From assembly GCF_041886205.1 (NCBI RefSeq), contig NZ_CP169031.1: a stretch of 64,000 bases of DNA. One strand, 5' to 3'. Positions 3,624 to 57,516 of this stretch are shown here, piece by piece (the stretch's first letter is position 1; every line of letters begins with the position of its first letter). The translations under genes were made by a program, and so were the position numbers. This DNA is from Escherichia coli. Its GTDB lineage: Bacteria; Pseudomonadota; Gammaproteobacteria; Enterobacterales; Enterobacteriaceae. Under the pieces are notes generated by a model. That model searched no databases and was not told the DNA's origin. It saw nothing but the letters and a program-made list of their open reading frames with translations.

Positions 3624-3643
3624 CAAGTGACTTTCAATAAAAT
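3624..3643 (+). promoter_or_regulatory. Late-promoter-like element: caagtgact, 5 nt, taaaat
   Basis: 9-mer caagtgact followed after 5 nt by a -10-like hexamer, with no -35, about 30 bp upstream of the capsid gene. The same architecture recurs at 25770, 44558, 48297 (minus) and 57477 (minus). Confidence 0.45.
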
Positions 3644-3673
3644 CTCTTCCGAAAAGGGATTCACACAAGTGCC

Positions 3674-5401
3674 TTGTGTTTAAGGAAGAGTAAATTGAGT
3701 AACTTACGCGAATACCAGAATCGTATTGCAGATATCGCAAAACGCTCTAAAGCTGTGCTTGGCTGGGCAAGCACTGCGCAGTTCGGTACTGATAACCAAT
3801 TCATTAAAGATGATGCCGCGCGTGCCGCATCTATCCTTGAAGCTGCACGTAAAGACCCGGTTTTTGCGGGTATCTCTGATAATGCCACCGCTCAAATCGC
3901 TACAGCGTGGGCAAGTGCACTGGCTGACTACGCCGCAGCACATAAATCTATGCCGCGTCCGGAAATTCTGGCCTCCTGCCACCAGACGCTGGAAAACTGC
4001 CTGATTGAGTCCACCCGCAATAGCATGGATGCCACTAATAAAGCGATGCTGGAATCCGTCGCAGCAGAGATGATGAGCGTTTCTGACGGTGTTATGCGTC
4101 TGCCTTTATTCCTCGCGATGATCCTGCCTGTTCAGTTGGGGGCCGCTACCGCTGATGCGTGTACCTTCATTCCGGTTACGCGTGACCAGTCAGACATCTA
4201 TGAAGTCTTTAACGTGGCAGGTTCCTCTTTTGGTTCTTATGCTGCTGGTGATGTTCTGGACATGCAATCCGTCGGGGTGTACAGCCAGTTACGCCGCCGC
4301 TATGTGCTGGTGGCAAGCTCCGATGGCACCAGCAAAACCGCAACCTTCAAGATGGAAGACTTCGAAGGCCAGAATGTACCAATCCGAAAAGGTCGTACTA
4401 ACATCTACGTTAACCGTATTAAGTCTGTTGTTGATAACGGTTCCGGCAGCCTACTTCACTCGTTTACTAATGCTGCTGGTGAGCAAATCACTGTTACCTG
4501 CTCTCTGAACTACAACATTGGTCAGATTGCCCTGTCGTTCTCCAAAGCGCCGGATAAAGGCACTGAGATCGCAATTGAGACGGAAATCAATATTGAAGCC
4601 GCTCCTGAGCTGATCCCGCTGATCAACCACGAAATGAAGAAATACACCCTGTTCCCAAGCCAGTTCGTTATCGCGGCTGAGCACACGGTACAGGCGGCGT
4701 ATGAAGCACAGCGTGAATTTGGTCTGGACCTGGGTTCCCTACAGTTCCGCACCCTGAAGGAATACCTGTCTCATGAACAGGATATGCTGCGTCTTCGCAT
4801 CATGATCTGGCGTACTCTTGCGACCGACACCTTTGACATCGCTCTGCCGGTTAACCAGTCCTTTGATGTATGGGCAACCATCATTCGTGGCAAATTCCAG
4901 ACTGTATATCGCGACATTATTGAGCGCGTTAAATCTTCTGGTGCGATGGGGATGTTTGCTGGTGCTGATGCAGCATCTTTCTTCAAACAGTTGCCGAAGG
5001 ATTTCTTCCAGCCAGCCGAAGACTATATCCAGACTCCGTATGTTCACTACATCGGTACCCTGTTCGGTAACGTGAAAGTGTACGAAGTACCTGCTGGTAT
5101 TTGTAAGAACTTAACGACAGAGAACATTCAGTTCAGCTCGATGGATGTGCTGTGCTACGTCCGTGATGAAAATCCGGGTAAAGCAGGCTTCGTGACTGGT
5201 GATGCTGTCCCGGCTATCCCGTTCCAGCATCCGACCACTCCGGCGCTGGTCAACCGTACCACACTGTGGGGTTCGGCTATCAACGATATGCACCCACGCA
5301 ACGGCGCTGATTACTTCACTCGTGTAACGCTGACAATGGCCAAAAAAGGCGGGCTTAACTTCATTAGCGGCGACACGATTGATGCCGGTGACTCTGAGTA
5401 A
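3674..5401 (+). CDS. Putative major head protein precursor (P1 gene 23-like)
   Basis: 575-aa ORF, first gene after parS and preceded by a late-promoter-like element. The track start is TTG; an in-frame TTG at 3695 has a better RBS (aaggaag). Confidence 0.5.
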   Translation: MCLRKSKLSNLREYQNRIADIAKRSKAVLGWASTAQFGTDNQFIKDDAARAASILEAARKDPVFAGISDNATAQIATAWASALADYAAAHKSMPRPEILASCHQTLENCLIESTRNSMDATNKAMLESVAAEMMSVSDGVMRLPLFLAMILPVQLGAATADACTFIPVTRDQSDIYEVFNVAGSSFGSYAAGDVLDMQSVGVYSQLRRRYVLVASSDGTSKTATFKMEDFEGQNVPIRKGRTNIYVNRIKSVVDNGSGSLLHSFTNAAGEQITVTCSLNYNIGQIALSFSKAPDKGTEIAIETEINIEAAPELIPLINHEMKKYTLFPSQFVIAAEHTVQAAYEAQREFGLDLGSLQFRTLKEYLSHEQDMLRLRIMIWRTLATDTFDIALPVNQSFDVWATIIRGKFQTVYRDIIERVKSSGAMGMFAGADAASFFKQLPKDFFQPAEDYIQTPYVHYIGTLFGNVKVYEVPAGICKNLTTENIQFSSMDVLCYVRDENPGKAGFVTGDAVPAIPFQHPTTPALVNRTTLWGSAINDMHPRNGADYFTRVTLTMAKKGGLNFISGDTIDAGDSE

Positions 5402-10070: not shown

Positions 10071-10358
10071 ATGGCTGATGTACGCATTACTTGCATTACC
10101 CTCTCCGGCTCGCAATCAATCCATGAGCATATTACTCATGTGGGAAGTCCTCAATTTAATACTAGCAATGGGAAATGGACTGTTGAGCAGGTAATTAATG
10201 CTATTGATAATAATCTCCATACATTCTATGTAACAGATAATGCAGGTAATCGTGTAGACGTTGGGGTTGTTAATCCTGGTAATGGTGGAAGGCAGTTTAT
10301 TAGAACGTATGCAGACAATCGATGGAATAATAATTTACTATCGCTACCAGTCTGTTAA
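10071..10358 (+). CDS. Small DUF3892-like protein
   Basis: 95 aa from MADVRITCI..., with an aaggaag RBS 5 nt upstream. The pattern ITHV...W...FYVTD...V.VV...G..FIRT..D...NNLLSLPVC matches my recollection of DUF3892 proteins. AT-rich leader. Confidence 0.4.
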   Translation: MADVRITCITLSGSQSIHEHITHVGSPQFNTSNGKWTVEQVINAIDNNLHTFYVTDNAGNRVDVGVVNPGNGGRQFIRTYADNRWNNNLLSLPVC

Positions 10359-14852: not shown

Positions 14853-14899
14853 AGTTACGGCCTCGTAAGTTGATAAACAACCTGCGACCCGCTGCTAAA

Positions 14900-14990
14900 C
14901 AGGTGGCAGGACGTGACGGGGTTAGCAGACTGGCACTTACGAAACCAGCAGGCCGAAGCCTCCCCATCACGCCCCACCATAATTCGGGCG
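14900..14990 (-). ncRNA. c4: c4-like antisense repressor RNA (approximate bounds)
   Basis: Between a C1 operator-like site (15165) and icd. The transcript would contain cugcuaaccc (14912-14921), complementary to two gguuuagcag target copies, one at 14888-14897 near the icd RBS and one at 15060-15069. Confidence 0.45.
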
Positions 14991-15164
14991 TAACGTGGTT
15001 TACGGACACAAAAATACCGCAATATCGGAAATCTGCGGTTGTCCGCGTAAGTATTCAGGCTGCTAAACCCGGTCGCAGAATTTGCTACGACGGCGGAACT
15101 ATAAGCCTGAACGATTAAAAGGTCAATATGATGCGAAAAGATAGCATTCGCGACTTAAAAATAC

Positions 15165-15181: not shown

Positions 15182-15277
15182 GCTTGTTTAATAAATGCAC
15201 AATTGGATCTAATAACCTCTTTTTTTTAAAGGCGAAAATATGTACCCTAAATGAGTTATAAGGCAGGTGAGGTTATA

Positions 15278-15769
15278 ATGAGAAAACTATTACTACCGTT
15301 ATTATTTATGGCTGGGACTGTTAATGCAGCATCAAGCGTGAAGGAGATTTGTACCGATTATACGAAATACCTTGGGCACGTTTACGGCTTTGCTGTCAGT
15401 CAAGACGAATCCATGCGCAAGAAGTTACTGTCAGATATGAAACGTCTTAAACTTTCTGAAGCGATGGTGCAGCAAGAACTATATAAAGTCGCAACCAACG
15501 AAAATGCTAAATATCAATATTCTCGCCTATTAAATCCCGACGCAAACGAGATCAATCGAAGCACTTTCGATTATATGGTAAAGGCATGCGAAACCGCTCC
15601 TGATTTTGCTATCCCTAGCTGGGGTGTGCTGGTGGCGAGCAATGCCGTTAATAAAGAAGATGTTGGAAGAAATGGCATTGACTCAATAAGAAATGCCCCA
15701 GGAATGCGCCATCAAAACGTACAGGGTACGCTTGAAGAACGAGCCAGGGGGCCGGGTGTAGCCCCATAA
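15278..15769 (+). CDS. Secreted hypothetical protein (Sec signal peptide)
   Basis: Start MRKLLLPLLFMAGTVNA with an AxA cleavage motif; 2 Cys in the mature part; the C-terminus shares a GMR..VQGTLEERARG motif with Sit. AT-rich gene. Confidence 0.55.
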   Translation: MRKLLLPLLFMAGTVNAASSVKEICTDYTKYLGHVYGFAVSQDESMRKKLLSDMKRLKLSEAMVQQELYKVATNENAKYQYSRLLNPDANEINRSTFDYMVKACETAPDFAIPSWGVLVASNAVNKEDVGRNGIDSIRNAPGMRHQNVQGTLEERARGPGVAP

Positions 15770-15857
15770 TTTTATAAATAATATTAAATTCTCTGGGCAT
15801 AGTGGATCTAACAATATGGACTATGCCTATAATATCTAAAAACAAAAGGATAAAAAT

Positions 15858-16364
15858 ATGAAATTGTATAAGTCATTGTATAGCTTTTTATTAATGTCCT
15901 CTTTTCTGCCATTATCAGCAATGGCAGGTTCTACCGTTTGGACGGTAGGAGGTGAGCAAGGGTGGAGAGAAATCTCTGCAACCAATGACGATGGTTACAC
16001 AATTAACTTTTCTTGTGATGCTGGAGCAAGGGAAGGTTCAGAAGATCATATCGCTGGAAGAAATTTGTATGTAAGCGGAGGAAAAGAGAATGCCGATTTT
16101 TCTACACGCGACACAATATCACGTAAAGCAGATGTAATTACTTTAATTGTTGGCCCGGATAGTTTTAATATTGGCACGCAAAACACTGCTCCTAATCGTA
16201 GGGAATGGTATTCATTTTGGAAGGCAGTGTCATCTACAAATGAAAAAAACATAGATGTATATATCGGTTCGAGTCGAATCACATCATTCACTCTGGATGG
16301 TATTTCCAGTATTTATACAGAAGCTAAAAATGACGGGTGTTTAAAACAAGATGACGGTGAATAA
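15858..16364 (+). CDS. Secreted hypothetical protein (Sec signal peptide)
   Basis: N-terminus MKLYKSLYSFLLMSSFLPLSAMA; 168 aa; AT-rich; overlaps the next gene by 14 nt. Confidence 0.55.
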   Translation: MKLYKSLYSFLLMSSFLPLSAMAGSTVWTVGGEQGWREISATNDDGYTINFSCDAGAREGSEDHIAGRNLYVSGGKENADFSTRDTISRKADVITLIVGPDSFNIGTQNTAPNRREWYSFWKAVSSTNEKNIDVYIGSSRITSFTLDGISSIYTEAKNDGCLKQDDGE

Positions 16365-17424
16365 AGTGAAGGATATTAAACACATTTCGCTTAACTCTAA
16401 TAATAAAGCTGAAGGCACTGCCTTTTATGATTATTTAAATGAAATTAAAGGAGTGAGGCATAAAAAGATAAGTGGTTTATTAAATTCAGAATATATTTAC
16501 AAGAGTTTAGTTAAACAGTTTGGAACAGTTAAAAAACAAGAATTAATTAATGATTGTTTTCGAAAAGAACTTGAGTCTTTACCAAAAGTTACGAGAATTG
16601 CACACCAGTTTCGTGAACAAATGGTATTTTTACAGAAACAGTATCAGGCGGCTTTTCCCAGTGATGCAAATGAGCATATTCAAATAATTAAAAATCAAGC
16701 TGAAATGGCTATGCCGTTACGAAAACACTCAGAAGCCATTAATAAGATAGCTGGCTTAAATAATATGGAGGAGGTATTTAAAGAATTACACTCTAATATA
16801 AATTACAAAATTAAGATAAGCAAAGATATTAAAGAAATAATAAAGCAGTATAATAAAACAAGAAGTGTATTATTAGAGCAAGTAGTAGAGCTTGGGCTTG
16901 TTACTATCGCGCAGGCTTATGCTAATGATTCTATAAAATCAGCGCATACCGAAAGTGAGCATCAAAACAAAGGATTTAATAAATCTAGTTCGACGTTTTT
17001 TGATTCATTTAAGGCGCTTCCTTCTCCTATTCAGATCTTCCTTCTGTGGATTTTTTATCAAGTGGTGCTTGGCGCTATAACTGATTATGCAAAAGAAAAG
17101 ACATTATCGCAAATTTACAAGATGGAATCATATCTTCTATCTCTAAATGAGGATAAGCCAATATCTAAGCAAAAGCTAACACAAGAAAATAAAGATATTC
17201 AGTGGGAGGATCTTAATAATTTTAGAGCTATAACAGGTGATAACGTAAGGTTGCATGTCGGCCCTTCTTTAAATAGTGAAGTGATTGAATGCATTGGCAA
17301 AAACACAATTGTTGCTATTTTAGATAAGAAAGATCGTCAATGGCTTTACGTGCAGGTTAAATCAGGGGATGAGTTTATTACTGGTTGGATTACACGAACA
17401 TACACAAAGCCTCTTAAGGCTTGA
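16351..17424 (+). CDS. Membrane protein with C-terminal SH3b-like domain
   Basis: 357 aa; predicted single TM helix (IQIFLLWIFYQVVLGAI); C-terminal RLHVGPSLNSEVI...GWITRTY resembles bacterial SH3b. Lys/Asn-rich, AT-rich codon usage. Confidence 0.55.
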   Translation: MTVNKVKDIKHISLNSNNKAEGTAFYDYLNEIKGVRHKKISGLLNSEYIYKSLVKQFGTVKKQELINDCFRKELESLPKVTRIAHQFREQMVFLQKQYQAAFPSDANEHIQIIKNQAEMAMPLRKHSEAINKIAGLNNMEEVFKELHSNINYKIKISKDIKEIIKQYNKTRSVLLEQVVELGLVTIAQAYANDSIKSAHTESEHQNKGFNKSSSTFFDSFKALPSPIQIFLLWIFYQVVLGAITDYAKEKTLSQIYKMESYLLSLNEDKPISKQKLTQENKDIQWEDLNNFRAITGDNVRLHVGPSLNSEVIECIGKNTIVAILDKKDRQWLYVQVKSGDEFITGWITRTYTKPLKA

Positions 17425-17554
17425 ATTTTATCTCCGCATCTTCGGATTGGGTGTTGATGACGATGTGCTACTTGAAGCACTTGAGTTGTTTTAACGTAGT
17501 ATCTGAAATGTGTAGACTGACCGGTAACAAATGACAACTCGTAGAATCGGTTAA

Positions 17555-30066: not shown

Positions 30067-31590
30067 TTAAATACTCCCCGCGTTATACCACGTCCCATTA
30101 ATGCAATACTGAATTGGCCTTGCCTGAGTTGTATCAATTAATTCATCACGGTTTCCGTTAACTGAACCTGTAACGACATAACCTGACCTGTCAGACCAGC
30201 CGGGACCATTCCATGTCTGAACAGATGACAGACCGCCCAGGCGAATACCTGTAATAAACCTTGAGTTACATTCTGCCTGCGTATATGCACCAACATCCCC
30301 CGCAGAGGGTTTGCGGGTTGTGGTGTAAAACTCTGACCAGTTAGCTTCAAAGCCATAACCATCACGCGCTGAACGATAAAAGATACCGCCGTTCTTATAA
30401 TTCACGCGGAACTGTACAGCAGGGCAACTCCCCGCATTCATATTGAAGTGGAGGATTAATGTCGATGCGCCACTGATATCTGCATCATAAACGCCGCTAT
30501 TCCAGTTCCAGCCAACAGCTTTATCATTTGCAACCCTGCTTCCTGTTTGCCCTAAAGCAAATGCAGGCTGCTGGTTTTTCGTGTTGTAGTCTCTTCGCCA
30601 GCCAGGAGCATAAGCATCACCATGATTAATATAAGTGAATTGAGCGTTAGTAATTCCGCCACCGCTGGACGTGCTCGGCGTAGTAACGCGTATGGTCATT
30701 GCGCCGCGAGTGCCAATAACTTCCACCACAGCACCTGCAAGACAAATATTTCCGCAACCTGTATCTGTAATGACCTTATTATTTGCATAAGCCCATGAGC
30801 CTTTGCACATCCAGTAAGGATGGTTAAATGCTCCCTGACTCTCCAGCCACGAAATAAATTGCGCGGTTGTCCAGACCTGACTATCGCCACCAATATTCAG
30901 CCATGCGCTATATGCGCGGCAGGCACCAATATTTTTGGTGAAGGTATCTTTTCCCGGAATATCTGCGCCGTTCTGGTTTTTCTGTAATGCTCCTGCGGCT
31001 AATTCTACAGTTTGCTCAAGATTTAAATCTGCCGCCGTTAGCTCAATATTTTTAGAACCGTCAAACGAGACACCGTTGATAGTACACGCCGTCTGCAATT
31101 TGGTCGCTGTAGCCGCATTACCAGAGGTGTCCTGATTCCCTTTGGTATTAACGCCGGGAACGGAATCTTTTGACGTATAGATCTGTGCCCATTCGGACCA
31201 TGCCGCAGCAGTGCTATCTCTTTTGGATCGAATGAAAGCTGGTGCATGAGCGCCATTTGTGCCACTCCAGCCAATGAGCAACTCGCCTTCACCAGTGGAT
31301 GCAGCTCCCTTCAGGTGAAGTACATTCCCGTAAGTCGTCGGATAACCATTGTTGTATGCCTCATACATCTGCAATCCAGTAGCAGCACCTAGCGTTGTAC
31401 CGGTAAGCGCAGTAACGCGTCCTCTAGACGTAATTGTTGGTATCGAAATGTTCGTAGAACCATCGAATCTGACGCCATTAATGTTTATGGCTGTTTTTAA
31501 TTTCGTCGCGGTGTCGGCGTTCCCTGTCAGCGCCCCGGTGATCCCGCCGTTAAAAGTCTGGCGCGCACTCCATGTGTTAGCCGTGCTCAA
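30067..31590 (-). CDS. Sv': Alternative tail fibre variable part Sv'
   Basis: 507 aa; N-terminus (STANTWSARQ.FNGGITGALTGNADTATKLKTA) matches the Sv entry region; the frame stays open through cixR, so it would fuse to Sc after inversion. Confidence 0.7.
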   Translation of the reverse strand: MSTANTWSARQTFNGGITGALTGNADTATKLKTAININGVRFDGSTNISIPTITSRGRVTALTGTTLGAATGLQMYEAYNNGYPTTYGNVLHLKGAASTGEGELLIGWSGTNGAHAPAFIRSKRDSTAAAWSEWAQIYTSKDSVPGVNTKGNQDTSGNAATATKLQTACTINGVSFDGSKNIELTAADLNLEQTVELAAGALQKNQNGADIPGKDTFTKNIGACRAYSAWLNIGGDSQVWTTAQFISWLESQGAFNHPYWMCKGSWAYANNKVITDTGCGNICLAGAVVEVIGTRGAMTIRVTTPSTSSGGGITNAQFTYINHGDAYAPGWRRDYNTKNQQPAFALGQTGSRVANDKAVGWNWNSGVYDADISGASTLILHFNMNAGSCPAVQFRVNYKNGGIFYRSARDGYGFEANWSEFYTTTRKPSAGDVGAYTQAECNSRFITGIRLGGLSSVQTWNGPGWSDRSGYVVTGSVNGNRDELIDTTQARPIQYCINGTWYNAGSI

Positions 31591-32198: not shown

Positions 32199-32261
32199 GA
32201 TTTTTACTCTAACCGGCTCATTTAAACCGTCTGGTCTGTTTCCTCCGGCTCTACAAAAATA

Positions 32262-32939
32262 ATGTCCATCATTTTTAATGGACACTATCGTATGAAACAC
32301 CGGACCTGGATCACTGAAGCTTTACGTCTTCACTTTGAAGAACATTTACCCCGGGTTGTGGCCGGGCGTCGCCTGGGTGTACCAAAATCAACAGTTTGTA
32401 GTATGTTCGTGCGCTTTCGGAGAGCTGGCCTTTCGTGGCCTTTGCCCGCAGGCATGTCGGAGCAGGAACTTGATGCCTGCCTTTACGGACAATTTTCCAC
32501 GGTACCAGTCGTACGTCCTGAAAGCACCGTTATATCCGAAGCCCCCGTGGTAAAAAAACGTCCCCGGCGGCCCAACTTCCCTTATGAGTTTAAAATCGCC
32601 TTAGTGGAGCAGTCACTGCAGCCCGGAGCCTGTGTGGCGCAGATCGCCCGGGAAAACGGAATCAACGATAACCTGCTCTTCAACTGGCGCCATCAATACC
32701 GGAAAGGTGGCCTGCTGCCTTCCGGAAAAAATATGCCGGCACTGCTTCCCGTGACGTTAACGCCGGAGCCGGATAATAAAATCCCGGCCCCCGCACAGGA
32801 ACCAGAGCAGATAAATACACCGTCCGACAGTCTGTGTTGTGAGCTGGTTCTGCCGGCCGGAACTCTCAGGCTTAAAGGTAAACTGACGCCGGCGTTATTA
32901 CAGACACTTATCCGCGAAATAAAAGGGAGCAGCCACTGA
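32262..32939 (+). CDS. IS66-family accessory protein (orf1/TnpA-like) with N-terminal HTH extension
   Basis: C-terminal part (RRPNFPYEFKIALVEQSLQPGACVAQIARENGINDNLLFNWRHQYRKG) is IS66 orf1-like; the ~95 aa N-terminal part carries an HTH-like segment (GRRLGVPKSTV). Confidence 0.55.
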   Translation: MSIIFNGHYRMKHRTWITEALRLHFEEHLPRVVAGRRLGVPKSTVCSMFVRFRRAGLSWPLPAGMSEQELDACLYGQFSTVPVVRPESTVISEAPVVKKRPRRPNFPYEFKIALVEQSLQPGACVAQIARENGINDNLLFNWRHQYRKGGLLPSGKNMPALLPVTLTPEPDNKIPAPAQEPEQINTPSDSLCCELVLPAGTLRLKGKLTPALLQTLIREIKGSSH

Positions 32940-33286
32940 TGATATCTCTCCCTGCAGGTTCGCGTATCTGGCTGGTTGCAGGTATCACCGATATGCGAAA
33001 TGGCTTTAACGGCCTGGCATCAAAAGTTCAGAACGTCCTGAAGGATGACCCGTTCTCCGGACACCTGTTCATCTTCCGCGGACGCCGGGGTGACCAGATA
33101 AAAGTGTTGTGGGCTGACAGTGACGGACTGTGCCTCTTCACCAAACGCCTGGAGCGGGGCCGCTTCGTCTGGCCAGTCACCCGTGACGGCAAGGTGCACC
33201 TTACTCCGGCTCAGTTATCCATGCTTCTTGAAGGTATCAACTGGAAGCACCCGAAACGAACGGAACGCGCTGGAATCCGCATATAA
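32939..33286 (+). CDS. tnpB: IS66-family TnpB (orf2)
   Basis: 115 aa; start overlaps the orf1 stop (atga), typical of IS66. Confidence 0.75.
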   Translation: MISLPAGSRIWLVAGITDMRNGFNGLASKVQNVLKDDPFSGHLFIFRGRRGDQIKVLWADSDGLCLFTKRLERGRFVWPVTRDGKVHLTPAQLSMLLEGINWKHPKRTERAGIRI

Positions 33287-33305
33287 CCCGTTGTAAAGTG
33301 AGGAT

Positions 33306-34877
33306 ATGGACACCTCACTTGCTCATGAGAACGCCCGCCTGCGGGCACTGTTGCAGACGCAACAGGACACCATCCGCCAGATGGCTGAATACAACCGCCT
33401 GCTCTCACAGCGGGTGGCGGCTTATGCTTCCGAAATCAACCGGCTGAAGGCGCTGGTTGCGAAACTGCAACGTATGCAGTTCGGTAAAAGCTCAGAAAAA
33501 CTTCGTGCAAAAACCGAACGGCAGATACAGGAAGCACAGGAGCGAATCAGCGCACTTCAGGAAGAAATGGCGGAAACGCTGGGTGAGCAATATGACCCGG
33601 TACTGCCATCCGCCCTGCGCCAGTCTTCAGCCCGTAAACCGTTACCGGCCTCACTTCCCCGTGAAACCCGGGTTATCCGGCCGGAAGAGGAATGCTGTCC
33701 TGCCTGTGGTGGTGAACTCAGTTCTCTGGGATGTGATGTGTCAGAGCAACTGGAGCTTATCAGCAGCGCCTTTAAGGTTATCGAAACACAACGTCCGAAA
33801 CAGGCCTGTTGCCGGTGCGACCATATCGTGCAGGCACCAGTACCTTCAAAACCCATTGCACGCAGTTATGCCGGAGCGGGGCTTCTGGCCCATGTTGTCA
33901 CCGGGAAATATGCAGACCATCTGCCGTTATACCGCCAGTCAGAAATATACCGTCGTCAGGGAGTGGAGCTGAGCCGTGCCACACTGGGGCGCTGGACAGG
34001 TGCTGTTGCTGAACTGCTGGAGCCGCTGTATGACGTCCTGCGCCAGTATGTGCTGATGCCCGGTAAAGTCCATGCTGATGATATCCCCGTCCCGGTCCAG
34101 GAGCCGGGCAGCGGTAAAACCCGGACAGCCCGGCTGTGGGTCTACGTCCGTGATGACCGTAACGCCGGTTCACAGATGCCCCCGGCGGTCTGGTTCGCGT
34201 ACAGTCCGGACCGGAAAGGTATCCATCCACAAAATCACCTGGCCGGTTACAGCGGTGTGCTTCAGGCCGATGCTTACGGTGGTTACCGGGCGTTATACGA
34301 ATCCGGCAGAATAACGGAAGCCGCGTGTATGGCTCATGCCCGGAGAAAAATCCACGATGTGCATGCAAGAGCGTCCACCTACATCACCACGGAAGCCCTG
34401 CAGCGTATCGGTGAACTGTATGCCATCGAGGCAGAGGTCCGGGGCTGTTCAGCAGAACAGCGTCTGGCGGCAAGAAAAGCCAGAGCCGCGCCACTGATGC
34501 AGTCACTGTATGACTGGATACAGCAACAGATGAAAACACTGTCGCGTCACTCAGATACGGCAAAAGCGTTCGCATACCTGCTGAAACAGTGGGATGCACT
34601 GAACGTGTACTGCAGTAATGGCTGGGTGGAAATCGACAACAACATCGCAGAGAACGCCTTACGGGGAGTGGCCGTAGGCCGGAAAAACTGGATGTTCGCG
34701 GGTTCCGACAGCGGTGGTGAACATGCGGCGGTGTTGTACTCGCTGATCGGCACATGCCGTCTGAACAATGTGGAGCCAGAAAAGTGGCTGCGTTACGTCA
34801 TTGAACATATCCAGGACTGGCCGGCAAACCGGGTACGCGATCTGTTGCCCTGGAAAGTTGATCTGAGCTCTCAGTAA
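33306..34877 (+). CDS. IS66-family transposase (orf3)
   Basis: 523 aa with coiled-coil N-terminus and Cys-rich zinc-binding motif (CPACGG...CCRCDH), typical of IS66 transposases. Confidence 0.8.
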
Positions 34878-35025
34878 ATATCAATACGGTTCTGACGAGT
34901 CGCTTACTTTTACTCTAATGCGTTGTTCTTATGAGTCTGCGAATTTTAAAGAACAAAGCGTTATGCACAGAAATAACAATCTGAATAGGTTCCTGCTTGA
35001 TTTTTGTTAGATCCGGGAGGAGCTT

Positions 35026-35310
35026 ATGCAGATTTTGATTTTTTTAATGTCCATTATTAGTGGAACCTATTTATTTCTTACTGGAGTTAGGCGTGGAGCT
35101 TATAAGCCATGTTTTTTACATTGGCTTGAAGCATGGCTGCTTGCCATAAAAGGTGGTTTTGTTGGTTTTTGTCTTGCAGAAGTTCAGTGGGGAAACTCAT
35201 TTTTGGATGTGGTTGCTTTTTTGATATGTAGTTGGAATAGCCATTTTGTATTAAGAATAACCAAAATATGGGTTTTTCACTTGATTTACGAATGTATTGG
35301 CAAATTATGA
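35026..35310 (+). CDS. Small hydrophobic membrane protein (possible holin-like)
   Basis: 94 aa with 2-3 predicted TM segments; strong RBS (gggaggag); just upstream of lydA. Confidence 0.35.
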   Translation: MQILIFLMSIISGTYLFLTGVRRGAYKPCFLHWLEAWLLAIKGGFVGFCLAEVQWGNSFLDVVAFLICSWNSHFVLRITKIWVFHLIYECIGKL

Positions 35311-35370
35311 ACAACCAGATGAGAAGTTACTTTGCATACCATTACCTCCTGACAACGTAGGAGGGAACTT

Positions 35371-35700
35371 GTGCTTGACACACAGGAATTAGCTCCAGTT
35401 GCTATTGCGCTCCTGCTTTCAGTAATTGGTGGGATAGGCACGTTCCTGATGGATGTCCGAGACGGTCGCCAGTCTGGCAATTTGTTGGGATTGGTTACGG
35501 AGATCTTTGTTGCAGTGACAGCTGGCGCGGTGGCGTACCTATTGGGGCAACACGAGGGCTGGGAGTTATCAATTACGTACTTAATGGTAACGATAGCCAG
35601 CAATAACGGTCATGAGGTGATTTCAGGGATGAAACGAGTGAATATCGATAGCATTCTGAATGTTCTTACAAGTTTGGTGAAAAAGGGAGGCGGGAAATGA
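35371..35700 (+). CDS. lydA: Holin LydA
   Basis: 109 aa with two TM segments and a charged C-terminus; first gene of the lyd-dar operon. Confidence 0.7.
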   Translation: MLDTQELAPVAIALLLSVIGGIGTFLMDVRDGRQSGNLLGLVTEIFVAVTAGAVAYLLGQHEGWELSITYLMVTIASNNGHEVISGMKRVNIDSILNVLTSLVKKGGGK

Positions 35701-36140: not shown

Positions 36141-36729
36141 GTATGCAACGGTCGATTTTGACCAGGTTAATGAAAAGGGGCTGAAATCCCTTATCGCGGC
36201 GATCAATAAAACCGGTGTTACGGTAATTGAGGTTGACTCCAGCAACCGCGCAACAACGAAAGATGGCGTTAAAGTTAAAACCGCAAAGCTGGTTCTTAAC
36301 GACGGACAAATTCTTGCCATACAGGTAAACGATACTGGCGATATATCGTCTGTGAGGCTGAATGGAAAAGCTATTCCTAACGCTCAGTCGCCGGATATCA
36401 AGACGCTTGGTACCGTCATGGGGCAAGCGGCCCGCAAAAACTCCGCAAAATTCCAGAAATCACTGATCGCCAAAGCGAAACGTGTTGCCAATCCGGTAGA
36501 CAAGAAACCGGCAGTAAAATCCAACTTTCAGCGCCTGCAAGAGGCAAAACAGCGGAATGCTCAGGTGGTTGCCGCTTATAAATCAGCGCAGAACTCGGTG
36601 TCTTTCAATCAACAGCAGATCACTGATTTGCGGGCGAAGCTGGATAAGGAGACAGGCCGACTCAATAACGAAAAGGCCCGAAATGGCGAACTCAAACGCC
36701 GTCTTAAGCAACTGAAAGCAGGAAATTAA
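36118..36729 (+). CDS. hdf: Hdf, homologue of a DarA fragment
   Basis: 203 aa; an internal segment (...ARKNSAKFQKS...) parallels the DarA segment (...AEKNSAKFQRA...). Confidence 0.6.
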   Translation: MCQMTKNKYATVDFDQVNEKGLKSLIAAINKTGVTVIEVDSSNRATTKDGVKVKTAKLVLNDGQILAIQVNDTGDISSVRLNGKAIPNAQSPDIKTLGTVMGQAARKNSAKFQKSLIAKAKRVANPVDKKPAVKSNFQRLQEAKQRNAQVVAAYKSAQNSVSFNQQQITDLRAKLDKETGRLNNEKARNGELKRRLKQLKAGN

Positions 36730-36730
36730 C

Positions 36731-38650
36731 ATGGAACAGTTCAATATCAATAAAGGGGTGACGATCAAACCTGGGCTTGACGTGCTTCCCCCGCCAGTGA
36801 CTGATGATGAATATCGCGCATTAATGGCCGGTGAGGACCGCTATCTGATGACGGAATCCAACACCCTGGAGGAAATCGAGGCTACGTTCTTCTATGACAC
36901 GCCGATCCACTGGTGTGCTACGGATTTACTGGAGGCGATTAGTTCTACTCGTTTGCAGCTACACCGGACCATGCAGGCATTTGTCCGGGCATTGAACCAG
37001 AAGCTGAATGGTACCGGAATCTCTGCGGGGAGTGATAAAACGGGGGATGTGGCCCAGAACGGTGCACGCGCGATCGGCGGGGCTGAAATTGGCCGGGCAC
37101 GTAACGTTAACGGGCTGCCGGTCCTGCCAGCCATTATTCCGCTCAGTGATGGTCAGACTATCAGCATTCTGTTTCATAGCCCGACAGCGGAAAACCGGAT
37201 CACCAATAGCGATACGCTGATTGCTTTCCAGTTCTTACTGAATAAAAAAGACGTTACTCATACCGTTGCTCCGATGAGTGGACGTGATATGACGCTGGCG
37301 CAGGTCACCATGAAACTTGCCAACCTTGCAGAGAAAAACTCGGCAAAATTCCAGCGTGCGCAGAAGAAGAAAAAAGCCCTGGTTGATGAAATAACCCAAC
37401 TACAGGCTGACAGTGACCAGAAAGAGGATGCCATGAGCGACCTCGCGGATCAGGTGGCAGCGGTAGAAGGGCAGAAGGTAGATCTGGAGCAGAAAATTAA
37501 CGCTGTTGCATCGGAAGCGGATTCTCTTTATGAAGAGAATGAGCGTTTGCAGACGGAGATTGATCAGCTCAATCGAACTGGTGGGCGCGAAACCATTGCT
37601 CCTGCGGGGATGACTGGTGGACACTCTCGCGCGATGACGGATCGCCTTGCAAGTATCAAAAATCGTATGCATATGAACGGGGAAGTGACGCTCAGTAATG
37701 GTGCATCAATGAAGCAATTCATTGAGGACGGTGAAGGGTATATCCAGTTAACCGATTCGGATGGCAGCGTGTACATGATCAAGGCTAAATCCATACAGGG
37801 TGTGGACATGGCAGATGCGATCGGCAAGCTGTTTAAAGCCTATAAAGCGGGTAATGTATCGGAATACCTGGTCCAACCAGAAGAACATAAACCGGAAAAC
37901 GTCGAACCTGAACCAGCGGAGGATACCGGTAGCTCTTCGCCTGAACCAGAAATCTCTGTAGGTGCATATCGATATGCCCTGCAAATGCGTCCGGCGGCCC
38001 CTGGCGCAATACCTGAAGGTAACAAAGCAATTCTGCCGCGCCCTGATGAAGGTGACCCGTATTATGAATATGCACGCTACGGCATTGCTACTTACGATAC
38101 CCCGCTTTCTGATCAGCAAATGAGTGAGTACGACCTGAAGTTATTGCCTCGCGAGGATTCTTTCGACTTCTTGGCGAAGACACTTACTAATGGTCCGTTT
38201 GGCAAATATGCACAAAAAGCTCTGGAGCTGGCCACCAGCTCACCAGACGAGTTCCGCGTAATGCTGAAAACTCAGTTTCAAAAAACTTTCCCCAATATTG
38301 CGTTTCCGGGGGGCGCTGGCACCGAGAAAATGGTGCAGAGCATGATCAATGCATTGCAGGCCGAAGTCGGTGAGATTACTCAGCCAGAACCTGCCCCGGC
38401 ACAGCCTGATGAAACGGTTAGCGAAGCAGATGCAGAGGCTAATAAAGCCATTGAATATCTCAATAACGTGATGGATATGCAAAGCACTGACATGGCGGAG
38501 ATCCGTAACGCCCGGGGTAATGTCCGGGAAGCGATTGCAGCCCTTCAGGCTGCCGGGCGTTTTGAGGAAAACGAAGAGCTGGTTAATGGCGCTGCTCGCC
38601 ACTTGGCTGATCTGCTGGTAGCAATCCAGAAAGCGGGGGTAGCGGCATGA
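36731..38650 (+). CDS. darA: DarA antirestriction head protein
   Basis: 639-aa ORF in the lydAB-hdf-darA arrangement; acidic, coiled-coil-rich. Confidence 0.7.
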   Translation: MEQFNINKGVTIKPGLDVLPPPVTDDEYRALMAGEDRYLMTESNTLEEIEATFFYDTPIHWCATDLLEAISSTRLQLHRTMQAFVRALNQKLNGTGISAGSDKTGDVAQNGARAIGGAEIGRARNVNGLPVLPAIIPLSDGQTISILFHSPTAENRITNSDTLIAFQFLLNKKDVTHTVAPMSGRDMTLAQVTMKLANLAEKNSAKFQRAQKKKKALVDEITQLQADSDQKEDAMSDLADQVAAVEGQKVDLEQKINAVASEADSLYEENERLQTEIDQLNRTGGRETIAPAGMTGGHSRAMTDRLASIKNRMHMNGEVTLSNGASMKQFIEDGEGYIQLTDSDGSVYMIKAKSIQGVDMADAIGKLFKAYKAGNVSEYLVQPEEHKPENVEPEPAEDTGSSSPEPEISVGAYRYALQMRPAAPGAIPEGNKAILPRPDEGDPYYEYARYGIATYDTPLSDQQMSEYDLKLLPREDSFDFLAKTLTNGPFGKYAQKALELATSSPDEFRVMLKTQFQKTFPNIAFPGGAGTEKMVQSMINALQAEVGEITQPEPAPAQPDETVSEADAEANKAIEYLNNVMDMQSTDMAEIRNARGNVREAIAALQAAGRFEENEELVNGAARHLADLLVAIQKAGVAA

Positions 38651-44557: not shown

Positions 44558-44577
44558 CAAGTGATTTGCATTATCCT
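44558..44577 (+). promoter_or_regulatory. Late-promoter-like element: caagtgatt, 5 nt, tatcct
   Basis: Same architecture as the 3624 element, about 90 bp upstream of lyz. Confidence 0.4.
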
Positions 44578-48277: not shown

Positions 48278-48297
48278 AATTTAACACTAGTCACTTG
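48278..48297 (-). promoter_or_regulatory. Late-promoter-like element (minus strand): caagtgact, 5 nt, taaatt
   Basis: Reverse complement of aatttaacactagtcacttg; upstream of prt. Confidence 0.4.
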
Positions 48298-51300: not shown

Positions 51301-54300
51301 TGACTTCGTTGCCGCCGGACGCGTAGCCAGCGCAATGGACTCCGACTCCCACCGCAAAGAGGCCGCGCGTCGCCGGGTATTGTCGGAGTATTCAGATACC
51401 GGCACCGAAAAAGCAGAGAAGTATCCGTACTTTGAGGATATGGGCTTCGATAGTGTGATCGCTGACGAAGGTCACAACTACCGCAATAGCTATAAAAATG
51501 GTCGCGAAGCGTCACAACTGGCCTATCTGCCCACCAGCGCGGTGGCGCAATCGGCGCGAGATATGGCAATTAAAAACGCGTACCTGATGAAAAAGAATGG
51601 TGGGCGCGGGCCGGTTCTCCTGACTGCAACGCCAGTCGTTAACACCCCGATCGATGCATACAACATGCTTTCTCATGTTCTGCCGAAGGAATACTGGCAG
51701 AACATGGGGATCTACGGTCCTGATGACTTCGTTAAATTCTTCGGCAAGACCAGGCTGGAAACGGTACAGAAAATTAGCGGTGAAGTTGAAGAAAAAATGG
51801 CGCTGGTGGGCTTTGAAAACCTTGATGCGCTGCGCGGTATATTCCATCGCTGGGTAACGCTTAAAACGGCGGAAGACGTTAAGGATACCGTGGAGATCCC
51901 GGAGCTGGACGAACACCAGCAGGATGCACCACTTACTGAAGAACAACTGGCGGCGTATGAAGAATTGCGTCAGCAGGCGGAAGCGGCGGCCAAAGCCAAC
52001 AATGGCGTAACGACCTCGGTCAATGAAGACGGCGTGATTGAGCACGAGAAAGCCCGTCCGATCTTCTCAATAATCAGGGATATGGACCGCGTATGTACTG
52101 ACATGGACCTGTACTATCGCCGGATCACCTATCGTTTCCTGCCGGAGTACGCCGATGCGGTGCAGCAGCTGGCGGACAGTTTGCCTAAACAAGCCACCAG
52201 CGAAGACGACGACAGTGATGATTCAATCACGCAGCAATCGCAATACTCCCTGATAGATAAGGGCGAGTTTATTCAGTTGCAGGTTCCGGAAGCGTTCGAG
52301 CAGGAAGTGAATAAGCGCCTGGCCAGGTTTGGCATTGACGAACAGACCGTAACTCACCCCGTTACGCCCAAATACGCGAAGCTGATTGCCACGCTGAAGG
52401 AGTTTTTCCCGGAAGGTAAGCAAATCATCTTCACCGATGAAAAAACGCAGCACCAGAAGCTCAAGCGCATTATCTGCAATGCTCTTAACCTTGAACCTTC
52501 AAAGGTGGGGATACTGAATGCTCAGACGGTTGCCGAGGCAGGTAAAACCGGTAAGAAACTGAAAGCGGTTAAACCGCCGAAAGAGTTACCGGATGAACCA
52601 ACAGATGCACAGATAGCGAAATACAACGAGCAAATGGCTCTGTATGACGCCTATATCGCGCAGCAAAATGAAATGTCGTTGGGCGGTCTGGAAAAGATTG
52701 CAGCCGACTTCCAGGAGGGCCGGACTCCGATCATCATCTGCAACAAAAAGGCAGAGGTGGGTATCAACCTGCATCGAGGAACGACTGACATCCATCATCT
52801 GACGTTGCCATGGACTCCAGCCAGTATTGCGCAACGAAACGGTCGCGGTGCCCGAGTTGGCTCCAACCGTGCAAGCGTTCGCGTTCACTACTACTGCGGC
52901 AAGGGTTCTTTCGATGAATACCGACTGAAGACGCTGAAGCGTAAAGCAGGCTGGATCTCCGATATCCTCCGTTCAGATAAGTCAGAAATGGAGAACGCCG
53001 ACGCCAACGATATGATCGAAATGCAGATGTATGCCGCTAAGGATGATGGCGAACGTCTGGCAATGATGCAGGTTCAAATGGATAAGGCGAAAGCCGCGCA
53101 ACGCGCTCGCCAGAAAGAACAGGCTACTATCGACCTTCAGAACTACATCAAGGCGCAGCACGCAGCTGGTGAGGATGTGGAGGTGCTTACCGCTGAATTA
53201 GAGCGAAGCAAAGCGGAACTTGAAAAGACCACCGCCGAGGTAGCTAAATTCAAACAGGCGGCAATGGCCAAGGCAGCGGATAACGCAGACTGGAAGGCAC
53301 GCTGGGGGAGTGTCCATCACACAGACCGTATGTTGTTAGCACAGTATCGCGCGTCGTTGAAAAGCGCCATTCAGCGCAAGGCTAATATCTCTCAAGCCAT
53401 CTCCCGCTATGAGAAATTATTGAACCGTACTCAGAAGGCCGCGACGGATATCAAACGCCTGCGCCCGCTGGTGGAGGATGCATTAAATAAAGGCATTCTG
53501 GATGTTGATCCTGACCTGGTTAACCATGCGAGTGAGTTCCTTGTTATCGGCGATCGCTCATGGCGTGTAGGCCAATACTACGATTGTGCCGGTGATATCG
53601 TTCGCATTAAGTCGCTGGACTTCGACAGCCAGCGCGCAGACGTGGAGATCATCTTCACCTTCAAAGGCACCAAATCTGGTAACTGGGATGTGAAGACGCT
53701 GGATAAACAGGTTGATGTAACTCCCGATGAAGATGCTGTTATGCAGAAAATCAGTGGTGGCGTCTCCATCGCCGGGATTAACGACATCGTTTCCTGTGAC
53801 GATTTCTACCGTTTCCAGCAGCGCGGCATGATCAAAATCACTGACTCATACGGCGTTCAGACTACAGAGTCAGGCTATAGCATTGATTTTGTTGGTACCT
53901 ATACGGACCCACTGAAGCATGCGGTTTACCCGGATCGCCGTGACGGCGCGCTGAAGTCGTCAATTGCAAAATGGGTGCTTGGTATGATGTCGGAAGGGAA
54001 TAACCGCCAGATCCGTTCGGCAGAAGCATTCCTGGTTGAACTGTTTGGCTCCAATTATGGCGATGTAATCGCGTCATACGGAGATACGCTATCCCCTGAA
54101 GCAATTCAGGAGAAAATAGCGGATGCGATCGCCAGAATGCCGGAGAAAACAAGCCAGGGGGCTACTCGTAACGGGGATTCTGAACTTGAAGTCACCAATG
54201 CCATTTTCGGTACCAATGAGTTCCGGGCGTCAGATTATGAGATCACCACAGCACAGTTTGGCACCATTGGCATTTACAGCAATAAAGACGAGATCAAGCA

Positions 54301-55797: not shown

Positions 55798-55879
55798 GTT
55801 TTGTTGGCCCGGTTTGCACCGGGCGTTTCACAAACAATCAACTGGTTTGTAGTTCCTGCGGCGAGATGAATTATTAATA

Positions 55880-56488
55880 TTATCGTGGTGCCGATGATGC
55901 GATAGCCTGTATGATGTTATCAATATCGTTATCGTTCAGCATGAATATAGGTACACCATTAGAGTTTGCATTTTTTTCAGTGCTCATCAAACAAAGCCCC
56001 TCATACATGCCGCGAGTTTTTTTGAAATTGGCGACTGATGGAGTGGTGTAATTTCCTTTAAAGTGCATTCCGGCTGATTCATAAAAAGGAACCAAATCAG
56101 ACTGGCAAATCAAAGCGACCTCATTTGGAAATGCAAGTATTTCTGCCAGTATATTACTTCCAAGTCCATTACCACGATATTGCTCATATACATATATTTT
56201 ATGACAGTACAACGGAAAATTTCCCGATGGATGTCCGAAGATTAAGGCGTATCCGAACAAGTTTTCTTCATTAGTAAAGCCCATAATGCGCAAATGACCG
56301 GCTCGGTAACACTCTTCAAAAACGTTAATTATGTAGCTTCTCGCTGCTTTCAGCTCCTCTTCTGTCGGGAACATCATCAACCCCATAAGCGATGGAGTAT
56401 AGGCCAGATCCTGAAGAATCCCATTAGCTTCATTTTCGAAAATTAGCGGTAAGTGCGGTACAATTTCATTTGCCGAGGTATTAGACAT
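55880..56488 (-). CDS. GNAT-family N-acetyltransferase
   Basis: 202 aa; motif A (YVYEQYRGNGLGSNILAEIL) and motif B-like (VPFYESAGMHFKG). AT-rich gene with its own AT-rich upstream region. Confidence 0.65.
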   Translation of the reverse strand: MSNTSANEIVPHLPLIFENEANGILQDLAYTPSLMGLMMFPTEEELKAARSYIINVFEECYRAGHLRIMGFTNEENLFGYALIFGHPSGNFPLYCHKIYVYEQYRGNGLGSNILAEILAFPNEVALICQSDLVPFYESAGMHFKGNYTTPSVANFKKTRGMYEGLCLMSTEKNANSNGVPIFMLNDNDIDNIIQAIASSAPR

Positions 56489-56496
56489 AGTATGGT

Positions 56497-56520
56497 GAGT
56501 CCTTTGTTTTCAAAGGACTC
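56497..56520 (-). promoter_or_regulatory. Perfect 10-bp-stem hairpin in the GNAT leader, overlapping the likely Shine-Dalgarno
   Basis: gagtcctttg-tttt-caaaggactc; on the mRNA it ends 8 nt before the ATG and contains the only SD-like aagga. Confidence 0.45.
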
Positions 56521-56686
56521 ATGTTATCAGTGATAATCGTTTGTTGTAATAGTGTTGATAAAATAATTTTCTATTATGTAAGCAAGCTCATTTTTATGAC
56601 GGGTAATGCAAAAAAAATAGAATCAAAAAACTAAAAAATAATAATTCATGGGGTTTTACACCATCAAAAGTCCCCACTATAAATTA

Positions 56687-57328
56687 TTAGAAATAATTAT
56701 GCTTGCCTGTTAATACCCCTTTCGGCACTTTTTTTTGTTCCAGTGTCTGGGTACCCAGAATTATGTTAATAAGTGGACTTAGTAACGATGGTTCCTGGCG
56801 GGCTTCAACTTCTCCAGCCATTGCCCTGATGTAGTCGGCGCTGGCAACGTTGTTGTATTCCGTCGCAAAGCAACATAGTAATGTCAGAACATGCTCTGTC
56901 GTTATTTCGCTCCAGTTGATGTTGAAAAATTCATCGCCTTTTTTATCGTGTTCGGAATCGAAGATGCTTTGGTGGAGGATGTATTTGCCGGATTCCTTGC
57001 GCGGTAACTTGATCGCTTTCTGGCGTTCCAGCTCCTTGTAAATCTGCATTGCTTCAATCAGTACCGGCCTGCCGTTCATGAAGGGATCGCGCAACCTTAC
57101 ACGCTGGCCAACTCGACCAGTAATAAAGCTGTTTTCCTCTTCCACCAGCACGATAAAACCCTTTTCCTCTTTTTCTCGCAATTCGCGCAGCAGCTGGAGT
57201 TCCATGTCGCGGCGGCGTTCAGGGTAGCTGGTCCGCTCAGCCATTATCAGCTCGTTGTTGATCCATGCAGCAGTCATTGACGCCGGTTTGCCGACGCTCA
57301 TCGAAACAACGCATATTTTCTTATCCAT
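56687..57328 (-). CDS. Hypothetical protein
   Basis: Track ORF of 222 aa (to 57355); likely start MDKKICVV at 57328. Preceded on the minus strand by a late-promoter-like element (57469-57477). Confidence 0.45.
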   Translation of the reverse strand: MDKKICVVSMSVGKPASMTAAWINNELIMAERTSYPERRRDMELQLLRELREKEEKGFIVLVEEENSFITGRVGQRVRLRDPFMNGRPVLIEAMQIYKELERQKAIKLPRKESGKYILHQSIFDSEHDKKGDEFFNINWSEITTEHVLTLLCCFATEYNNVASADYIRAMAGEVEARQEPSLLSPLINIILGTQTLEQKKVPKGVLTGKHNYF

Positions 57329-57516
57329 AGCGCCCCTACAAAAAAGAAAAGCCACCAGCGGCGGCTTAGCAATACAACTGAAGGTAGCGCCCGGTACTCA
57401 GACTGTGCCGTCCATGGAATATTTGAAAAGGGATCCATCCGTACCGGGCGTGTGATGATTCTGACTCAAGTCACTTGTCAGTTGTCAATCATTTAAGATT
57501 AAAAATAATATATTTA

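Follow-up and report, generated by a model that had tools for sequence, protein, structure and literature searches.

Does the short element that recurs upstream of structural and lysis genes in this DNA mark the late promoters of a phage, and which factor would read it? The stretch analyzed here, 64,000 nt of the Escherichia coli contig NZ_CP169031.1 (the window), had been scanned in a first-pass annotation that listed a 9-mer followed after exactly 5 nt by a −10-like hexamer at five places, the first ahead of the capsid gene, and proposed activator-dependent late promoters of a P1-type phage. A sequence search with the region around the first site returned P1, P7, and many P1-like elements at 97-99% identity, and the whole window matched P1 and P7 at 96-99% identity; by sequence, it is a P1/P7-like phage-plasmid, that is, a plasmid prophage. 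BLAST comparison with AF234173, the fully annotated P1 record, revealed a collinear map in reverse orientation, with the gene order repA, par, gene 23, tail genes, invertible C segment, lyd-dar, lyz, prt/pro, darB, mat, ref, cre/lox, c1, and pacB/pacA. The par region is P7-type, unlike that of P1, the interval from 9 to 17.5 kb is partly unlike P1 and carries a different module in the sim position (15251-17424), and the lydC allele is of the P7 type, so that the upstream contexts of the late promoters differ from those in P1. Further differences from P1 are an IS66-family element between cin and lydC (about 32210-34907), the absence of the IS1/isaB segment, and the replacement of the res-mod genes by a GNAT acetyltransferase gene, an arrangement common to about 20 plasmids of E. 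coli, E. fergusonii, and Salmonella. Rfam models also located the C4 antisense RNA and the a1/b1 target sites of the immI region, known P1/P7 features, at 14899-14984 and 15052-15104 (− strand).

A search of the window for CAAGTGACT-N5-TANNNT with at most one mismatch retrieved exactly five sites, at 3624-3643 (+), 25770-25789 (+), 44558-44577 (+), 48278-48297 (−), and 57458-57477 (−), each precisely where it had been listed. Dinucleotide-preserving shuffles of the sequence yielded 0.20 such sites on average, with one as the maximum, which sets the enrichment of the composite pattern at 25-fold. The 9-mer alone, with the same tolerance, was barely enriched (20 observed versus 12.4 expected), indicating that the signal resides in the composite of box, fixed spacer, and −10 hexamer. 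This marginal excess of the bare 9-mer, together with the background matches that appear inside genes once three mismatches are allowed, is what speaks for a chance or compositional recurrence, or for ordinary sigma-70 promoters that share a sequence without any dedicated activator; the 25-fold enrichment of the composite pattern already argues against both.

Eleven sites carry a late-promoter annotation in the P1 record (LPs/Ps, LPsit, LPdar, LPlyz, LPpro, LPmat, LP23, LP26, LPpmgL, LPhot, and LPpac), and in each of them a short spacer separates a 9-bp "−22 region" from a −10 signal. Seven of them, namely LP23, LPsit, LPs, LPdar, LPlyz, LPpro, and LPmat, are present in the window, collinear with the P1 map and identical to the P1 promoters at 34-39 of 39 nt; the other four (LP26, LPpmgL, LPhot, and LPpac) belong to parts of the genome outside it. 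The five sites of the initial list correspond to LP23, LPs, LPlyz, LPpro, and LPmat and differ from them at 0-2 of 39 positions, which bears out their assignment to late promoters of a P1-type phage. LPsit, directly after the sim-position module, and LPdar were both missing from that list, and the accompanying statement that the lyd-dar operon lacks a recognizable copy proved wrong. Comparison with the known late-promoter consensus, which we took from GenBank annotation and secondary sources, evidenced the same architecture of "−22 region" plus TANNNT.

We then scored the window with a weight matrix built from nine P1 late-promoter sites. Its top ranks were exactly the seven late-promoter sites, at 19.3-25.7 bits, followed by matches of 17.3 and 14.0 bits; first-order Markov simulations placed the chance expectation per window at 0.03 matches of at least 19 bits, 0.1 of at least 17, and 0.67 of at least 14. 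Removal of a site's own P1 ortholog from the matrix left leave-one-out scores of 14.3-23.1 bits. A matrix derived from the five initially listed sites alone, as had been suggested, fails to separate signal from noise: it assigns 13.0 bits to LPdar and 11.9 to LPsit, against background matches of 13.9 and 13.3, which explains why these two promoters went unnoticed. All seven sites fall wholly within the 6.6% of the window that a greedy set of open reading frames (coverage 93.4%) leaves free, each on the strand of the next gene and co-oriented with its operon, with 29-130 nt between the −10 hexamer and the start codon. The even distribution over coding regions that the first-pass annotation had set against its own proposal is thus not what the window contains. 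The genes downstream (23, pmgC, R, lydA, lyz, prt, and mat) represent late operons, and every site points toward its operon.

Weaker matches were rejected as promoters. The 17.3-bit match at 35634-35654 (+; ACGAGTGAATATCGATAGCAT) lies inside lydA, 43 nt before lydB, is identical in P1 and absent in Cronobacter phage JK004, and probably reflects chance or coding constraint. Those at 10082 (14.0 bits) and 15991 (13.1 bits) are located inside an open reading frame and antisense within the AT-rich module, respectively. A 12.6-bit match at 56487-56507, before the GNAT gene, has its −10 overlapping the ATG and a score at chance level (2.2 matches of at least 12 bits are expected). The earlier observation that neither the sim-position module nor the GNAT gene is preceded by a credible copy thus holds.

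LP23 (3625-3643, + strand; 25.7 bits) consists of the box AAGTGACTT at 3625-3633, the spacer tcaa, and the −10 TAAAAT at 3638-3643. It heads the major capsid gene 23 (3695-5401) and the 22-21-pmgG-bplB genes, and is identical at 39/39 positions to the "predicted late promoter LP23" of P1, which carries only this "predicted" status in the P1 record. Within the leader of gene 23, an inverted repeat ACACAAGTGCCTTGTGT at 3663-3679 (+), just before the ribosome-binding site, resembles the −22 box; its conservation in JK004 is not obvious. LPs, the classical Ps promoter (25771-25789, + strand; box AAGTTACTT, spacer ctct, −10 TACAAT; 25.5 bits), lies upstream of the tail-fibre genes R (25820), S, and U, differs from P1 LPs by one substitution (38/39), and has an ortholog in JK004 upstream of the R gene. 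LPlyz (44559-44577, + strand; box AAGTGATTT, spacer gcat, −10 TATCCT; 21.6 bits) precedes the lysozyme gene lyz, with its ATG at about 44665, and lydD/lydE; it matches P1 LPlyz, recorded there as the previously identified late promoter of gene 17, at 37/39 positions. LPpro (48278-48296, − strand; box AAGTGACTA at 48296-48288, spacer gtgt, −10 TAAATT at 48283-48278; 24.5 bits) is located in the 75-bp divergent intergenic region between prt and darB, is directed toward prt (48235 down to 46526) and pro, and is identical to P1 LPpro at 39/39 positions.

LPsit (17529-17547, + strand; box AAATGACAA, spacer ctcg, −10 TAGAAT; 19.3 bits) lies 31 nt upstream of pmgC (17579), the first gene of the tail operon pmgC-tub-pmgB-sit-pmgA-bplA-16. 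The module in the sim position ends at 17424 and homology to P1 begins at 17526, only 3 nt before the box; LPsit itself differs from P1 LPsit at 5 of 39 positions, of which one lies in the box (AAATGACTA in P1). LPdar (35324-35342, + strand; box AAGTTACTT, spacer tgca, −10 TACCAT; 20.4 bits) is placed 29 nt upstream of lydA (GTG at 35371), which heads the operon lydA-lydB-hdf-darA-ddrA-ddrB-hxr, and differs from its P1 counterpart at 2 of 39 positions, both of which precede the box. Its two mismatches to the 9-mer of the initial list arise because a G instead of a C precedes the box and a T occupies box position 5. LPmat (57458-57476, − strand; 24.4 bits) combines the box AAGTGACTT at 57476-57468 and the spacer gagt with the −10 CAGAAT at 57463-57458, and matches the "late promoter LPmat; former LP2" of P1 at 38/39 positions. 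The single substitution, a G for C in the spacer, lengthens the palindrome, so that the box extends here to 11 bp (CAAGTGACTTG). Compared with the P1 promoters driven by Lpa/gp10 and SspA, the seven sites therefore share sequence (0-5 substitutions per 39 nt), position, and architecture, and the differences are only allelic.

Alignment of the seven sites further uncovered the natural register of the element. The canonical unit is a 9-bp palindrome, AAGTGACTT, that coincides with the "−22 region" and is separated by 4 nt from TANNNT; the C+AAGTGACT plus 5 nt described initially reads this block from one base further left. All seven sites show 0-3 departures from the palindrome and an invariant 4-nt spacing to the −10. 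The hexamer takes the TANNNT form at six of the seven and thus at four of the five first listed, the fifth being LPmat, whose CAGAAT also occurs in P1's own LPmat. Similarly, the claimed lack of a −35 element applies to six sites upon inspection of the 25 nt upstream of each box, the exception again being LPmat, in which a perfect TTGACA, overlapping the box, precedes the −10 by 19 nt; the P1 record annotates the sigma-70 promoter Pmat there. The palindrome is preceded by A, and then C, in every copy of P1, the window, and JK004 (G for C in LPdar), which indicates that the conserved block is really 11 nt long and asymmetric.

The box forms a perfect inverted repeat of 9 bp, and of 11 bp at LPmat, a shape typical of dimer-binding operators, and mosaic junctions occur just upstream of some copies, features that would also suit an operator for C1 or another dimeric regulator, or a site for recombination or packaging. 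We consider this reading very improbable: the C1 operators of P1 are distinct 17-bp sites with annotations at other places, the spacing between box and −10 is constant at 4 nt, the box is always oriented toward late operons, the AC is conserved on one side only, rendering the element asymmetric, and the literature assigns the box to Lpa activation. Inspection of the opposite strand at LPmat and LPpro disclosed no TANNNT at the right distance for divergent use of these boxes.

Comparison with relatives provided a further assessment of this element. JK004 shares about 74% DNA identity with the window in the capsid gene, and its Lpa is 67% identical to that of P1. The P1 matrix finds sites there before the orthologs of 23, R, mat, 26, prt, pacA, pmgC, and lyz, that is, at no fewer than eight operon starts. 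In ungapped comparison with the window, the 21-nt core retains 14-20 identities whereas the 40 nt upstream retain only 9-24, a clear footprint; the core is kept at 20/21 positions in LP23 (13/40 in the upstream flank), 19/21 in LPsit (9/40 in the flank, with the same GACAA box variant), and 20/21 in LPpro. Chance recurrence would not preserve a box across about 26% DNA divergence while its flanks drift, and neither chance nor plain sigma-70 promoters sharing a sequence would place all seven sites in the 6.6% of intergenic DNA, mostly without a −35, as orthologs of experimentally named P1 late promoters. We consider that possibility effectively refuted on these grounds, its residual probability being negligible.

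Phage D6 is more distant, with a capsid protein 44% identical and an Lpa only 31% identical to that of P1, and the P1-type matrix gives just one strong match in its genome. D6 carries instead a different box, AAATCACAA, followed by 6 nt and a TANNNT-like hexamer, which occurs 10 times (1.65 expected), always at an operon start and immediately ahead of a gene; 23, prt, R, lydA, mat, gene 7, pmgB, and the endolysin gene are among those so preceded, and examples of the sites are MF356679 (loci L006/L007) 54124-54144, 25221-25241, 38115-38135, 31511-31531, and 72100-72120. D6 and D6-like plasmid prophages therefore follow the same logic as P1, with an upstream box at a fixed distance from the −10, no −35, and an Lpa homolog, at orthologous late-operon starts (23, prt, R, lydA, mat, gene 7, and others), but differ in the sequence and spacing of the box. 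In a third lineage, represented by locus L168 (Mat 56% identical), AAAGCACTT occupies the box at LPmat and at a second site. The box is thus kept alongside a similar Lpa, as in JK004, and changed where Lpa has diverged, as in D6, which is as predicted for an activator-specific promoter element.

The same comparison brought up an unannotated late-promoter-like site outside the window, at AF234173 76461-76481 (− strand; 20.7 bits), about 47 nt inside P1 gene 7. It has an orthologous copy at 36465-36485 in JK004 and another in L168 (12364-12384), where the box is changed in the same way as that of the L168 LPmat.

With the replacement of the sim module next to LPsit and the IS66-family insertion near LPdar, some copies might be inactive relics whose operons depend on read-through or on sigma-70 promoters. 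The LPsit box carries three mismatches to the palindrome, for which LPsit may be a weak promoter, and leave-one-out scores are only 15.7 bits for LPsit and 14.3 bits for LPdar; homology also breaks just upstream of both. The GACAA variant of LPsit is nevertheless the one found in JK004, and its spacer and −10 are intact, while the core of LPdar is identical to that of the functional P1 LPdar and the insertion sequence ends about 415 bp to its left, beyond lydC. The relic scenario is accordingly unlikely in our judgment, and retention of working promoters is the reading that we favor.

The homology breaks with P1 or JK004, at 17526, 35314, and 3619, map 3-10 nt upstream of the LPsit, LPdar, and LP23 boxes, respectively, and suggest that mosaic exchange respects promoter-plus-operon units. 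The IS66-family element itself contains three open reading frames of 225, 115, and 523 aa and has landed some 10 nt ahead of the start codon of cin (32198, − strand), which cuts this invertase gene off from its own promoters and leaves lydC (35026-35310) and LPdar intact.

Promoters that lack a −35 and depend on an activator are familiar from other phages, such as the middle promoters of T4 (MotA box, AsiA) and the late promoters of P2/P4 (Ogr/Delta) and Mu (C protein). In these, the host sigma-70 polymerase is redirected by a phage factor, and a good −10 is combined with a phage-specific upstream element that replaces the −35; the proteins are unrelated, the boxes differ in position and sequence, and no homology is implied. 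To our knowledge, the need for host SspA is unique to P1 among them.

P1 relies on the host RNA polymerase for its late genes, which are transcribed from special promoters dependent on the phage protein Lpa (PMC8198154). P1 late transcription also needs host SspA, according to PMC8201110, which cites Hansen et al. 2003, and a secondary source asserts direct DNA binding by Lpa. The protein, which is the product of gene 10 (gp10), has its own Pfam family (PF25716, BPP1_LPA), and no PDB structure is detectable for it by sequence; the P1 record annotates expression of lpa from a C1-repressed promoter. The window ends at P1 position 90635 and P1 lpa spans 89672-90124; by synteny, lpa and LPpac should lie just past the right end of the window, some 0.5-1 kb beyond 64000, and we infer from the same map that the element carries the gene.

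The seven sites are almost certainly Lpa-dependent late promoters of this P1/P7-like plasmid prophage. Extrapolating from P1, each copy would be active and dependent on Lpa in this particular element as well. The −10 hexamer TANNNT would be read by the host sigma-70 RNA polymerase, with the palindrome AAGTGACTT, centred near −22 and preceded by AC, in place of a −35 element, and transcription would need both Lpa (gene 10) and host SspA, as the literature describes. Upon loss of C1 repression, Lpa would be made early and the late operons would then fire simultaneously, so that head, tail, lysis, and anti-restriction functions are switched on together, late in lytic growth. The late operons in the window (23-bplB, pmgC-16, R-S-U, lydA-hxr, lyz, prt-pro, and mat) total about 28 kb.

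The 222-aa gene downstream of the fifth site, which the first-pass annotation had placed in the late class, is the maturation control gene mat, and 222 aa is the length of its mechanical GTG-to-stop open reading frame. It is thus no new late gene, its late promoter LPmat having already been annotated in P1. The P1 record, however, gives mat a late promoter with an overlapping sigma-70 promoter and a C1 operator, and the non-canonical −10 of LPmat together with that overlap implies that mat is not purely "late". Alignment to P1 mat places the gene at 56687-57328 (− strand), encoding 213 aa from a probable ATG at 57328. P1 annotates Mat as 250 aa from an upstream ATG (equivalent to 56687-57438 in the window), but a 1-nt deletion in a G-run puts this N-terminal extension out of frame here. 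Among 80 IMG/VR relatives, which were found with Mat and are all at least 90% identical, a set useful for indel polymorphism and not for covariation, the LPmat box is invariant or nearly so, and several 1-2 nt indel variants occur in the G/T runs upstream of the mat ATG. The 213-aa form (start MDKKICVV) matches PHROG 1837 over its full length (positions 1-212 of 212), and its first residue is also that of the Mat proteins of JK004 and D6. In P1, the mat start is therefore probably mis-annotated, the true one corresponding to ATG 57328.

The interval between lxc and mat (55798-56686) is a variable cargo slot that contains the GNAT gene in the window; P1 has res-mod there, and SJ46 and 673R5 have a RelA/SpoT-family gene. 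With AT-rich flanks, the GNAT gene (55880-56488, − strand) is co-oriented with mat without a clear terminator between them, which makes late read-through from LPmat possible. At loci L168, L169, and L171 (10001-15500), mat is followed directly by the orthologs of 26-25-7-24-6-5 and thus heads a baseplate/tail operon, a position that it holds in most of the relatives compared; in P1, the map places mat and these genes well away from each other.

A leader of about 130 nt (57329-57457, − strand) separates LPmat from the mat ATG, a stretch that the P1 record annotates as coding for the Mat extension; since natural 1-2 nt indels break that extension, the leader is probably non-coding. Folding predicts a long stem in it (GCCCGGTAC...GTACCGGGC), and a terminator scan and folding revealed a terminator-like hairpin, AAGCCGCCgctGGTGGCTT and then TTCTTTTTT, at 57367-57340. 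The order promoter, leader, GC-rich hairpin with U-run, and ATG recurs at six of seven distinct mat loci, in P1-type, JK004-type, and D6-type elements alike: those of P1/window, JK004, and D6, and three (L168, L170, and L171) of four more distant ones, even where the box type changed; the layout was not seen in L169, the remaining one of the seven. Coordinates in relatives are MZ188976 39271-39410, MF356679 71964-72100, and about 9850-10000 in L168/L170/L171. Between the window and JK004, one stem position shows a compensatory change from A-T to G-C (GCCCGGTAC/GTACCGGGC versus GCCCGGTGC/GCGCCGGGC). Taken as a whole, the leader folds with an unremarkable energy (z = −1.7), and an Rfam scan of the window gave no family match in it. 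LPmat may not simply drive mat. The conserved hairpin tentatively suggests two possible roles for the leader, either as an attenuator that acts in the late phase and requires antitermination or as the origin of a small terminated RNA, about 110 nt long, that controls mat, although we hold this to be rather less than an even prospect.

Knowledge of the P1 late promoters and of their activator dates back to about 1990. The motif is a correct rediscovery of that set, and it adds nothing new to a P1 GenBank record in which the late promoters are annotated base by base. Its practical value is one of annotation, in that the element has lost none of the seven late promoters to be expected over this part of the genome; the retention of LPsit and LPdar despite the replaced sim module and the IS66-family insertion indicates that expression of the late operons is probably still possible. 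Of more interest than the motif itself are the by-products. The series of box-activator co-variation running from P1 through L168 to D6 could serve to dissect Lpa specificity, and the terminator-like hairpin between LPmat and the mat start codon may merit follow-up, as this conserved, terminator-containing leader bears on the question of antitermination in P1.
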